Below are positions 28,435-43,715 of a DNA stretch of 64,000 nucleotides, in pieces. The position numbers were made by a program, and so were the translations under genes. The notes under the pieces were generated by a model. It was not told where the DNA came from, made no database searches, and worked only from the letters and a program-made list of their open reading frames with translations. Within the stretch, counting starts at the first letter, position 1. Every line of letters starts with the position of its first letter. The stretch is taken from the NCBI RefSeq assembly GCF_050920415.1, contig NZ_CP169309.1. One strand, written 5' to 3'. This DNA is from Escherichia coli (GTDB taxonomy: Bacteria; Pseudomonadota; Gammaproteobacteria; Enterobacterales; Enterobacteriaceae).

Positions 28435-28524
28435 GTGCGGGGGCAGGATAGCAGAAAATTGAGAAGTGGTGCGGCCTTTTCCCCTCACCCCGGCCCTCTC
28501 CCCGGAGGGGCGAGGGGGAAACGA
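28435..28524. repeat. GC-rich imperfect palindrome (REP-like) between lldD stop and trmL start; possible lld operon terminator
   Basis: ttcccctcaccccggccctctccccggaggggcgagggggaa shows extensive self-complementarity. Confidence 0.45.
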
Positions 28525-32399: not shown

Positions 32400-32540
32400 T
32401 CAGAGAATTGCCCTCAGATTGTTGATCTGGTACGCCTTATCTTGCCGGATGCGGCGTGAACGCCTTATCCGTCCTACAGGAATGTGCTGAATCATCCCGT
32501 AGGTCTGATAAGCGTAGCGCATCACGCAATTTGGCGTTTA
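32400..32540. repeat. REP/BIME-type extragenic palindromes downstream of the adhesin gene
   Basis: Motifs gccggatgcggcgtgaacgccttatccg and taggtctgataagcgtagcgcatcac typical of REP units. Confidence 0.7.
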
Positions 32541-39701: not shown

Positions 39702-40289
39702 TTACTTTTGAAAGGCTTTTTTTAAGCTGATTTTGGAAATCAGCTCTGTCAGTGAAAGGACCATTGTTGATCGCACAGCCTGTTGGTAACGCTGAATTTG
39801 CATTGCATACAAACTGGAGTCTGCGGGTTCAAACTGTGGCGGCGGTGGTAACGCCGCCACACAGTGCAGCTCACCAAAGGGGCCAAGAATTTCGTCGTCG
39901 GTAAAGGCGTACTCATTGCCGTCGTGATTTAGTTCTTCACGCAATGCCATCAGCAGTTCCGCATCTTCATATTCATGGCGGTTAATGACACCCAACCCGT
40001 AAATGAGTTTTAAACGCACAGAAAGATCGCCCAGCGGGCCATCGCCGTCGAGTAACGGTTCTACAGCATACTTCACCGCGTAATCGTCTTTGCGGAATAC
40101 CTGAAGCACCAGAAGATTTACCGCCTCGGTCAAAAGCTCGACGGCGGTAATCAGAAAGCTTCGCACGGTTTTGCCAGCATTCAGACGCTCAAGCACACGG
40201 TTTTCAAAGGCCTGGGTTTGTTCCATTGTTGCCTGCATATCTGACAATCTGTTATTCGGGCGCAGGGAGTCCTGCGCCTGGTCCACCAT
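39702..40289 (-). CDS. mtlR: Mannitol operon repressor, 195 aa
   Basis: [46 protein letters not shown]... Confidence 0.9.
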   Translation of the reverse strand: MVDQAQDSLRPNNRLSDMQATMEQTQAFENRVLERLNAGKTVRSFLITAVELLTEAVNLLVLQVFRKDDYAVKYAVEPLLDGDGPLGDLSVRLKLIYGLGVINRHEYEDAELLMALREELNHDGNEYAFTDDEILGPFGELHCVAALPPPPQFEPADSSLYAMQIQRYQQAVRSTMVLSLTELISKISLKKAFQK

Positions 40290-41437
40290 TATTGCATTGC
40301 TTTATAAGCGGTTACCGCCTCGGATACAACCTCGCTGTTAGCATCAAGGCCAGAAATCTGCGCCAGTGCGGCTTGCGGGCCTTTGTCGGCAATCAGTGCT
40401 GCCAGTTCCTGAGCCTGCGGATCATCTTCACTGCGGAAGTGCATTGCAGCGGCAATACCTTCAATCAGGTTTTTATGTGGCAGACCATATTCCAGCGTTC
40501 CGAGCAGTGGCTTGATCAGGCGGTCGCCAGCACTCAGTTTACGCAGCGGCTGACGGCCTACGCGCTCTACATCGTCTTTCAGATACGGGTTTTCAAAACG
40601 ACCAAGGATTTTCTGGATGTATGCCGCATGTTTGTCAGCATCAAAGCCGTAGCGCTTGATCAGTACTGCGCCACTTTCTTCCATCGCCCCTTTTACTACC
40701 GCGCGGATTTTCGCGTCGAGAATTGCGTCACGAATGGTCTGATGACCTGCCAGTTTTCCGAGGTACGCGGTTATAGCATGACCTGTATTCAGGGTGAAGA
40801 GTTTACGCTCAACAAATGCCATCAGGTTGTCGGTTAACTCCATGCCTGGGATGTTCGGCAGTACACCTTTGAACTGGGTTTTATCGACAATCCATTCGCT
40901 GAAGGTTTCGACTGTCACTTCCAGCGGATCGTTCGTTGCCGAAGCGGAAGGCGGTACGATGCGGTCAACGGCGGAATCCACAAAGCCAACGTGTTCTTCT
41001 ACCCACGCTTTGGCGTCTTCTGGCAGGGCGTTCATCACATGGCCTTTCAGTTGCGTGGTGCCGCGTACCATGTTTTCACAGGCGATAATGTTCAGTGGGG
41101 ATTCATTACCTTGTTCTTTACGTTTCACCAGCCCTTTGGCGATTGCCGGAGCAATACGTTCCAGCACAACCGGGCCCACGGCGGTAGTGACTAAATCAAC
41201 CTGAGCAATCAGATCAACGACATCATCACCAATGCTGCTGACAGCATTGACGCCAGAAACGGTATCTACCTGCTCGGTTTCACCGACTACATGAACCTGA
41301 TAGCTATGACGGGCATTCAGGGCATCAAGTACCACCTGATTGACATCGGCAAACGTCAGTTGGATACCTGCGTCTGCCAGCAGTTTACCGATAAAGCCAC
41401 GACCGATATTACCTGCGCCAAAATGTAATGCTTTCAT
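40289..41437 (-). CDS. mtlD: Mannitol-1-phosphate 5-dehydrogenase, 382 aa; the 530-aa ORF in the track reads through the upstream REP region
   Basis: [34 protein letters not shown]...; start at Met149 of the long ORF. Confidence 0.9.
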
Positions 41438-41454
41438 AGTATTAACCTTCATCA

Positions 41455-41800
41455 ATGTTTTTACCCGAGAGGGCTGGGGTGAGGCTTTTCCCTCACCCAA
41501 ACCCTCTCCGTGAGGAGAGGGGCCGCGCCGGATGCGGCGCAAACGCCTTATCCGGCCTACAAGAACGTGCAAATTCAACAAATTGTGCTTTTTTTTGTAG
41601 GCCTGATAAGCGTAGCGCATCAGGCAATCAGCCCATCTTCTCCATGTGGAGAGGGGCCGCGCCGGTTGCGGCGTAAACGCCTTATCCGGCCTACAAGAAC
41701 GTGCAAATTCAACAAATTGTGCTTTGTTTTTGTAGGCCTGATAAGCGTAGCGCATCAGGCAATTAGCCCCACCGTCTCCATGTGGAGAGAGTGGGGTTGG
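41455..41800. repeat. Tandemly duplicated BIME/REP unit (two copies of about 125 bp) in the mtlA-mtlD intergenic region
   Basis: Two near-identical blocks containing gccggatgcggcg(c/t)aaacgccttatccggcctacaagaacgtgcaaattcaacaaattgtgc...gtaggcctgataagcgtagcgcatcaggc. Confidence 0.8.
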
Positions 41801-41801
41801 A

Positions 41802-43715
41802 TTACTTACGACCTGCCAGCAGTTCCAGCACTTCATCCACGCTGGTGGTGTGCGCCAGACGCTCGATGACAGACTCATCATCCAGTGCGTTGGTCAGGCT
41901 GGTGATAACCTGAATGTGCTCGTTGTTACGGGCAGCAATACCAATCACCAGACGGGCAATGTCATCTTCTTCTTCACCGAAGCGCACGCCTTCCGGGTAC
42001 TGGCAGAACACCACGCCCGTTTTCAGTACGCGATCTTTCGCTTCAACCGTACCGTGCGGTACCGCGATGGACTCACCCAGATAAGTCGGGGTCAGTTTTT
42101 CACGATCCAGCATCGCCTGAACGTATTCCGGCTCAACGTAACCGCCTTTCACCAGCTGCTCGCCAGCAAAACGAATCGCTTCTTCTTTGGTGGCCGCTTT
42201 GCGACCGAGGAAGATGTTCTCCGCGCCTAGCTTGAACAGGTTAGCACTGGAATCGTCAAAGCTGTCTTTCAGACTGTCTTTCACTTTTACTTCGTTTTCA
42301 GTATGGCGCTGGGCAGCAACCAGACGTTCGGTCAGGCTGGTGTACAGGCCGCTGTCGAGGAAGTTGGTCAGCGAAATATGCTGTGCCTGCGGAACCTGGC
42401 GCATAGCGCGTTCGGTCAGATCACGGTGAGTGATGACGAGGTCCACATCTGGTGGCAGGTTGTTGATCGCGCTGTTAGTAACAGAAATCTGCGACAGACC
42501 AGCATCCTGAATTTTCTTACGCAGCACGCCTGCACCCATCGCACTGGAACCCATACCGGCGTCACAGGCAACGATGATTTTACGTACGTGGCTCAGGTCG
42601 TTAGTCACATCGCCCGCAGACAGCGGAGACGCACCTTTAGATTCAGCTTTCATGTCCTGCATACGACGCGTTGCTGCTTCAATGTCATCTTCTTCTTTCA
42701 CTTTGCTGGTTTTCAGCAGAATGGCAGAGACAACGAAGGAGACTGCCATAGCCGCACACACACCCGCGATGTTAGCGAAGTAAGCACCTTTTGGCGTCAT
42801 CGCCAGTACAGCAAGGATAGAACCCGGAGATGCCGGAGAAACCAGACCACCGCCCAGGATAGTCAGCGTGAACACGCCAGTCATACCGCCGAGGATAACG
42901 GCCAGAATCAGACGCGGATTCATCAGCACATACGGGAAGTAGATTTCGTGGATACCCCCCAGGAAGTGAATGATTGCCGCACCGCCCGCAGACTGTTTAG
43001 CGCTACCACGGCCAAAGAACATGTACGCCAGCAGAACACCCATACCCGGACCTGGGTTAGCTTCAATCAGGAAGAAGATGGATTTACCCAGTTCATGGGA
43101 CTGCTGAATACCCAGCGGCGAGAAGATACCGTGGTTAATGGCGTTGTTGAGGAACAGGATTTTCGCCGGTTCAACAAAGATAGACGCCAGCGGCAGCATG
43201 TCATGGACAACCATGAAGTTAACGCCCGCAGCCAGCATTTTGGACAGGGCTTCAACAATTGGACCAATGCCGAGGAACGCCAGAATAGCGAGGATCATCC
43301 CGATGATGCCTGCGGAGAAGTTATTCACCAGCATCTCAAAACCGGATTTGATCTTACCGTCTACCCAGCGGTCGAAGTGCTTAATGCACCAGCCGCCCAG
43401 CGGACCTGCAATCATAGAACCGAGGAACATCGGCATATCTGCGCCGACGATAACGCCCATTGTAGTGATGGCACCGACTACGCCGCCACGTTCGCCGCCT
43501 ACCAGCTTACCACCGGTATAACCGATCAGCAGTGGCAGGAGATAAGTGATCATCGGCCCGACCAGCTTCGCCAGCGTTTCGTTCGGTAACCACCCTGTTG
43601 GAATAAATAACGCGGTGATGATACCCCACGCGATAAACGCGCCGATATTTGGCATCACCATGTTGCTGAGGAAACGACCAAAGCTTTGCACTTTGATCTT
43701 AATATCGGATGACAT
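41802..43715 (-). CDS. mtlA: PTS mannitol-specific EIICBA component, 637 aa
   Basis: [37 protein letters not shown]...; C-terminal EIIA domain. Confidence 0.95.

Follow-up and report, generated by a model that had tools for sequence, protein, structure and literature searches.

Intercistronic REP stabilisers reportedly exist at malE-malF and hisJ-hisQ, as described by Newbury et al. in 1987 and by Stern et al. in 1988. A REP, or palindromic unit, is an imperfect palindrome of 20-40 nt preceded by a GTAG tetranucleotide (PMC3333891; PMC8266576), and the y and z1 types measure 35 nt and 29 nt, respectively (PMC8266576). In the literature REPs are stabilisers of upstream mRNA and terminators, they can attenuate transcription, and they are bound by IHF, Pol I and gyrase (PMC3333891; PMC2267715; PMC8266576). 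The element known as BIME-1 (RIB/RIP) joins one z1 and one y in inverted orientation through a long L linker that often contains an IHF site (PMC3333891). It is described as single-copy and is either present or absent among strains (PMC3333891; PMC1187871). BIME-2 and atypical arrays are made of head-to-tail repeats whose copy number varies among strains, and the BIME-2 repeat itself combines y and z2 with a short S linker.

Here we describe the spacer between mtlA and mtlD in one strain of Escherichia coli. The window is the whole stretch of 64,000 nucleotides that was analysed, and the mtl array is a small part of it. The array is an ordinary element of the REP/BIME kind, present as a rare, inherited two-copy allele. 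We give a probability of about 85% to the reading as a whole, namely a two-copy VNTR allele of a BIME-1 plus a palindrome, which would have originated through the palindromes and would function as an mRNA stabiliser and IHF-type element. Gene annotation was taken from RefSeq for the identical record NZ_CP169399.1 (E. coli MFDS1022581; 100% identity over the query), and the features of the locus are collected in Table 1. The K-12 record NC_000913.3 carries no repeat_region annotation in the mtlA-mtlD spacer. A literature search returned nothing specific on REP or BIME elements at mtlA-mtlD or on IHF binding there; an IHF ChIP study that mentions mtlA uses it as a control region and has no spacer data in its text (PMC1636352).

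Table 1. Coordinates of genes, repeats and hairpins around the mtlA-mtlD spacer, numbered from the first letter of the window.
Feature	Position	Strand	Properties
mtlR	39702-40289	-	
mtlD, mannitol-1-phosphate 5-dehydrogenase, 382 aa	40289-41437	-	NCBIfam NF002648, 875 bits, residues 1-382/382; RefSeq
mtlD true start, ATG	41437-41435	-	
Spurious 148-codon 5' extension of the mechanical mtlD ORF (40289-41881, 530 aa)	41438-41881	-	not coding
mtlA-mtlD spacer	41438-41801		364 bp
Two-hairpin module adjoining the mtlD ribosome-binding site, outside the duplication	41462-41524	-	inverted repeat; fold -37.7 kcal/mol, z -3.9
Repeat unit 1	41505-41638		134 bp; palindrome, Y REP, L linker, Z1 REP, short linker
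Y REP, unit 1	41527-41560	- (GTAG-first orientation)	34 nt; 2 mismatches to Y consensus
L linker, unit 1	41561-41596		IHF-like core ATTCAACAAATTG at 41573-41585
Z1 REP, unit 1	41597-41625	+	GTAGGCCTGATAAGCGTAGCGCATCAGGC; 29 nt, GTAG first; 0 mismatches to Z1 consensus
Internal unit-unit junction	41632-41657		CCCATCT, palindrome TCTCCATGTGGAGAGG, GGC; marks multi-unit alleles
Repeat unit 2	41639-41774		136 bp
Y REP, unit 2	41661-41694	-	34 nt; 2 mismatches to Y consensus
L linker, unit 2	41695-41731		IHF-like core at 41707-41719
Z1 REP, unit 2	41732-41760	+	29 nt, GTAG first; 0 mismatches to Z1 consensus
Terminal extended hairpin, third palindrome copy	41767-41796	-	RNA fold -21.6 kcal/mol, z -5.3
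mtlA stop codon	41804-41802	-	
mtlA, PTS mannitol transporter IICBA, 637 aa	41802-43715	-	NCBIfam NF011663, 1324 bits, residues 1-637; RefSeq

Tandem Repeats Finder reports a single array at 41501-41789 with a period of 134, 2.1 copies, 92% matches, 1% indels and a score of 508. A repeat search finds direct-repeat pairs of 92 nt (95% identical) and 46 nt (96%) at a spacing of 134/135 nt, and in a global alignment the two units differ by seven substitutions and two one-base indels (~93% identity). The tandem duplication between mtlA and mtlD is far beyond chance. A preliminary description of this DNA had proposed a tandemly duplicated REP/BIME unit at this place with paired REP motifs in each block; the three analyses bear out the duplication, and each block does hold a REP pair. 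Its estimate of about 125 bp for the block has to be replaced by a period of 134-136 bp. Within the interval that it assigned to the duplication, 41455-41800, the array proper fills 41501-41789, and the segment 41455-41500 belongs to a different, conserved hairpin module. Calling the repeated unit REP/BIME is correct as far as it goes, but the unit is more than a BIME and also holds a locus-specific palindrome that is not a REP. This palindrome is 16-20 bp long and reads TCTCC(A/G)TG(T/A)GGAGAGG. It occurs once per unit, so placed that its copies flank each BIME-1 as direct repeats, and the unit boundaries fall inside these copies. The array is closed by a partial third copy that consists of the 16-nt palindrome at 41775-41790.

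Each unit contains one Y REP and one inverted Z1 REP, as judged by consensus strings that we take to be those of the Y, Z1 and Z2 types. The lengths found agree with the published ones (PMC8266576). The four elements resemble described REPs in their GTAG, their length, their imperfect hairpin and their dispersed intergenic copies. The L linker of 36-37 nt reads AAGAACGTGCAAATTCAACAAATTGTGC... on the plus strand, and its IHF-like core agrees with the IHF consensus WATCAANNNNTTR at eight of nine specified positions, with one mismatch. Full-length matches to the 99-bp Y-L-Z1 core, 82-92% identical, lie at the unrelated loci plsB/ubiA, pepB/sseB, dppA/dppB and livJ/panM, and the linker core AAnTCAnnAnATTG and the REPs are invariant across these four loci and mtl. 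As a query the 99-nt BIME-1 finds a median of 8 places per E. coli genome, and the 764-nt spacer query described below finds a median of 19. All other BIME-1 copies that we inspected are intergenic. In the five-locus alignment BIME-1 homology ends exactly at the outer ends of the REPs, and hence the palindromes and short flanks are specific to the mtl locus.

The mtl element thus shares with BIME-1 the Y and inverted Z1 with GTAG feet, the long conserved L linker with an IHF-type core, and the extragenic position downstream of a gene. It differs from the single-copy, present-or-absent BIME-1 of the literature in having two tandem copies here and 0-3 in other strains, each with a locus-specific palindrome, and because of this difference we file it as a tandem array of BIME-1 units. 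With BIME-2 and atypical arrays it has in common the head-to-tail repetition and the variation in copy number among strains, and an array of Y/Z2 repeats occupies the same mtl site in ST131-type strains. It is nevertheless not a BIME-2: a REP consensus scan of the window found no Z2 REP and no S, s, l or r linker, so that the pairing of y and z2 across a short S linker is absent, and the period is set by a palindrome that is not a REP. Elsewhere in the window, at 32444-32527, a Y REP and an inverted Z1 REP are separated by a 21-nt linker (the GAATGTGCTGAATCATCCC region); this is an atypical short-linker BIME and not a BIME-1.

The survey of copy number covered 5,426 complete E. coli genomes, of which 5,425 were matched by a 764-nt query across the spacer, and allele frequencies were taken from an evenly spaced sample of the ranked matches. 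The preliminary description had expected copy number to be polymorphic among strains, and comparison with other E. coli mtl operons confirms this, since spacers with 0, 1, 2 or 3 units occur. Spacer length is an easy PCR marker for these alleles: 94 bp with no unit (ERL05-0623), 229 bp with one (K-12, 2013C-4282), 363-364 bp with two (the window, RMDEC465, DETEC-S792, 2020CK-00188, EC42405) and 498 bp with three (Z0117EC0005, R32_14_1F). A further class, the ST131-type, has spacers of 319, 419 or 520 bp (ST131, BH100, EcPF40), in which one to three Y/Z2 (BIME-2) repeats of ~100 bp each are followed by a degenerate BIME-1. A single unit, as in K-12, is found in about 60% of genomes and the ST131-type class in about 20%, both as sampled. 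There are 930 genomes (5,425 minus 4,495) that cover less than 80% of the 764-nt query, and every sampled one of these has the 94-bp allele.

The two-unit allele of the window strain is rare. Full-length matches to a 68-nt query with the unit-unit junction at its centre occur in only 18 of the 5,426 genomes (0.33%). Eight of these have two units, the window strain included, and ten have three, the latter being counted as genomes with an extra junction place of the kind seen in two verified three-unit genomes. Compared with the 229-bp K-12 spacer and its one BIME-1, the window has the same flanks, module and palindromes and is longer by 135 bp, that is, by one extra unit. Among seven multi-unit strains that we examined, the spacers are linked to at least three MtlA protein alleles: WP_000093252.1 in five, including the window strain, and WP_105288225.1 and WP_000093242.1 in the others. 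Because at least three MtlA alleles are linked to it, the multi-unit allele may have moved across haplotypes by recombination, or MtlA may have diverged after the duplication.

Whole units separate the alleles of the spacer from one another, and the boundaries all fall inside the palindrome. In the one-unit allele, for example that of K-12, a single BIME-1 stands between two direct palindrome copies. All 18 multi-unit alleles share a derived internal junction in which ...AGCCCATCT is followed by TCTCCATGTGGAGAGGGGC..., the CCCATCT form, whereas the terminal copy reads ...AGCCCCACC(T/G) followed by TCTCC..., the CCCCACC(T/G) form. Between unit 1 of the window and the first units of other multi-unit alleles there are 3-5 differences, against nine between unit 1 and its own unit 2. 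For unit 2 the nearest sequences are the last units of other alleles and a one-unit allele (4 differences), and the K-12 unit shows 13-14 differences from either unit of the window. Across strains, first units and last units form separate clusters. As unit 1 is nearer to the first units of other strains than to its own neighbour, the duplication is old and inherited. The sequences point to a two-unit arrangement that arose once at the mtl locus, long ago, and was passed down to the window strain, and to three-unit alleles that arose from two-unit ones. Unequal homologous recombination or replication slippage between palindromes would have produced the two-unit and then the three-unit alleles, and the reciprocal exchange event would have produced the 0-unit allele. 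By parsimony only, the 0-unit allele of E. coli is more likely a secondary deletion than an ancestral empty site, because the two-palindrome arrangement is common to E. albertii and to the BIME-bearing alleles of E. coli, including ST131.

Since repeats are prone to assembly error and the exact window sequence is found in one record only, the second unit might be thought a product of mis-assembly in a strain that truly has one unit. We consider this scarcely credible. The two units differ at nine positions, which a spurious duplication would not yield. The same derived junction recurs in 17 other independent complete assemblies with two or three units, and the separate clustering of first and last units across strains also speaks against an artefact. 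Another account would replace exchange between palindromes with amplification by the REP-associated tyrosine transposase (TnpAREP/RAYT), acting by cleavage and strand transfer at CT sites, the route proposed for BIME-2 arrays. TnpAREP cleaves in or near REPs and linkers, recombines BIMEs in vitro, and has been proposed as the source of tandem BIME variation (PMC3333891), and CT dinucleotides are present where CCCATCT meets TCTCC at the junction. Against its involvement here, the unit includes ~35 bp of non-REP, locus-specific sequence, and a direct repeat of 16-20 bp lies at every boundary, the hallmark of unequal crossing-over or slippage. BIME-1 is also not known to be amplified by TnpAREP (PMC3333891), and we find this account quite unlikely. 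Exchange or slippage between palindromes remains our preferred origin for the two-unit allele.

The spacer is strongly structured at the RNA level. Its sense RNA of 391 nt folds with -173.5 kcal/mol, against -121 ± 5.6 for shuffled sequences (z -9.3), and the individual hairpins range from -13 to -22 kcal/mol. In unit 1 the Y REP hairpin has -21.1 kcal/mol (z -3.75) and the Z1 REP hairpin has -13.2 kcal/mol (z -4.0), both with internal mismatches. The stem of the terminal hairpin begins 6 nt past the mtlA stop and is present in one-, two- and three-unit alleles alike; it lies close enough to the stop to meet the terminating ribosome. Translational down-regulation of mtlA by a stop-proximal REP was considered and rejected, as the Z1 REP starts 41 nt past the stop and thus outside the <16-nt rule (PMC12306157).

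By analogy with REPs elsewhere, the best reading of the array is that of a passive cis element in the mtlADR transcript. It would be transcribed within the operon mRNA as a chain of stable stem-loops, and these would impede 3'-to-5' exonucleases, as REPs do elsewhere, so that the mtlA segment would be stabilised relative to mtlD. The arrangement is like that of malE-malF and hisJ-hisQ, where REPs stand between a highly expressed upstream transport gene and downstream operon genes, and a comparable difference in mRNA stability would be expected. It differs from them in that the mtl case is known from sequence and carries a BIME-1 with an IHF-like linker, in two copies. At the DNA level there would be two putative IHF-type sites instead of one. 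The second unit leaves the hairpin module and the ribosome-binding site next to mtlD untouched, and its influence on these effects is probably quantitative at most.

Several other roles can be proposed for the spacer. A link between BIMEs and transcription attenuation has been reported (Espeli et al. 2001, as cited in PMC3333891 and PMC2267715), and in Serratia, Pectobacterium and Vibrio the mtlA-mtlD spacer has a GC hairpin followed by a U run, which would suit a terminator or attenuator between the two genes in place of an RNA stabiliser. For the spacer studied here this is unlikely: a scan of 41300-41950 on both strands found no intrinsic terminator-like site (GC-rich stem-loop plus U run), the REP hairpins have no U tails, and the operon continues downstream into mtlD and mtlR, the same scan giving no promoter-like site for the spacer on either strand. 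The spacer could also encode a product of its own: MtlD with an N-terminal extension, a small protein, or a naRNA-like small RNA derived from REPs. The mtlD frame is indeed open for 152 codons upstream of the ATG, and Rfam, searched at a permissive E-value, gives only sub-threshold matches, all to naRNA4 (RF02564). Yet the family alignment of MtlD starts at the annotated ATG and covers residues 1-382 of 382, an NCBIfam scan assigns no family to the 148-aa extension, which overlaps the end of mtlA, and the same frame closes after 61 codons in other two- and three-unit alleles. The naRNA4/CssrE matches score 36.6, 32.7 and 22.6 bits, much too low for the gathering threshold of 59.5, and reflect REP similarity. 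With the lack of a promoter-like site added, a product encoded by the spacer is highly improbable. Finally, toxic mannitol-1-phosphate builds up when transport outruns MtlD (PMC11784389), and for this reason we considered whether BIME-1 copy number (0-3) might be a heritable dial on the MtlA:MtlD ratio, which graded REP protection of the mtlA message would set, or on local supercoiling and IHF occupancy. Selection might then keep the rare multi-unit alleles in particular lineages, and the hairpin module next to mtlD might be a true regulatory switch as well. We hold this to be very doubtful, and the passive cis element remains our reading of the array.

The open frame upstream of mtlD needs a further remark, as the preliminary description had named the duplication as the cause of the spurious 5' extension of mtlD. 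This does not hold. Even in the 0-unit allele 62 codons are open in this frame, and in K-12 107 are; there as in the window strain the frame runs into mtlA. The duplication only lengthens it, by 90 codons relative to the 0-unit allele and by 45 relative to K-12. It is longer in the window strain because both units of that strain happen to lack a stop in this frame. Callers that choose the longest ORF will mis-extend mtlD at this spacer.

The module directly upstream of the mtlD ribosome-binding site is conserved at the orthologous place in 48 of ~115 species, among them members of Escherichia, Salmonella, Citrobacter, Enterobacter, Klebsiella, Cedecea and Kosakonia. Its small hairpin (~41502-41521) supplies the first of the palindrome copies at the unit boundaries. 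The GGAGAGGG segment of the module can pair either with the upstream CCCUCUCC, forming the small hairpin, or with the downstream CCCUCUC, forming the long hairpin. RNAalifold favours the long hairpin, with two covarying pairs (UG/CG/UA and UA/CG). The module may belong with boxC-like elements, or its alternative structures may serve regulation. BoxC is a GC-rich imperfect palindrome of ~56 bp with 20-30 copies per E. coli genome (PMC2267715). The module is found at one place per genome at E<=1e-3 in a sensitive BLAST search, a setting in which short partial matches cannot reach the E-value in 28 Gb. A similar motif, GAGAGGGCCGGGGTGAGG, lies at 28483-28500. At 28480-28515 on the minus strand the intergenic GC-rich motif GGGGAGAGGGCCGGGGTGAGGGG resembles one half of the module; it hints at a dispersed boxC-like family.

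The spacer was compared across species by taking one genome per species and searching for a degenerate MtlD N-terminus pattern, which gave 120 loci. REP cores of the E. coli type occur in this spacer almost only in Escherichia, with one further core-pattern match in a Vibrionales genome. E. albertii has a palindrome, a Y, a short linker, a Z1 and a second palindrome. Two palindromes flank the BIME in E. albertii and in ST131-type E. coli; one palindrome is present in Pseudescherichia, whose 94-95 bp spacer has no REP, and in Salmonella and Citrobacter. Salmonella and several Citrobacter species carry one REP there, of a type of their own. The 220-bp spacer of C. werkmanii, C. youngae CCUG 30791 and C. 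braakii contains an ERIC-like core, scored against what we take to be the ERIC consensus. To judge from these alleles, there is a hot spot between the module and the mtlA stop at which repeats of different families insert. It has received BIME-1 in 0-3 copies, one to three BIME-2 with a degenerate BIME-1, the Y-short linker-Z1 element of E. albertii, the REPs of other genera and the ERIC-like core. In Pectobacterium and Serratia, at six loci, and at Vibrio loci the spacer is ~60-100 bp long, and one GC-rich hairpin followed by a U run, terminator- or attenuator-like, stands in place of REPs.

The array at mtl is only mildly unexpected, in that a BIME-1 varies from 0 to 3 tandem copies there, and it does so because it is flanked by short direct repeats. 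This matters little in itself, but it provides a clean and quantified case in which a BIME-1 between short direct repeats can act as a tandem copy-number variant. The mtlA-mtlD spacer is also a natural allelic series for the number of REP hairpins needed in intercistronic mRNA stabilisation.
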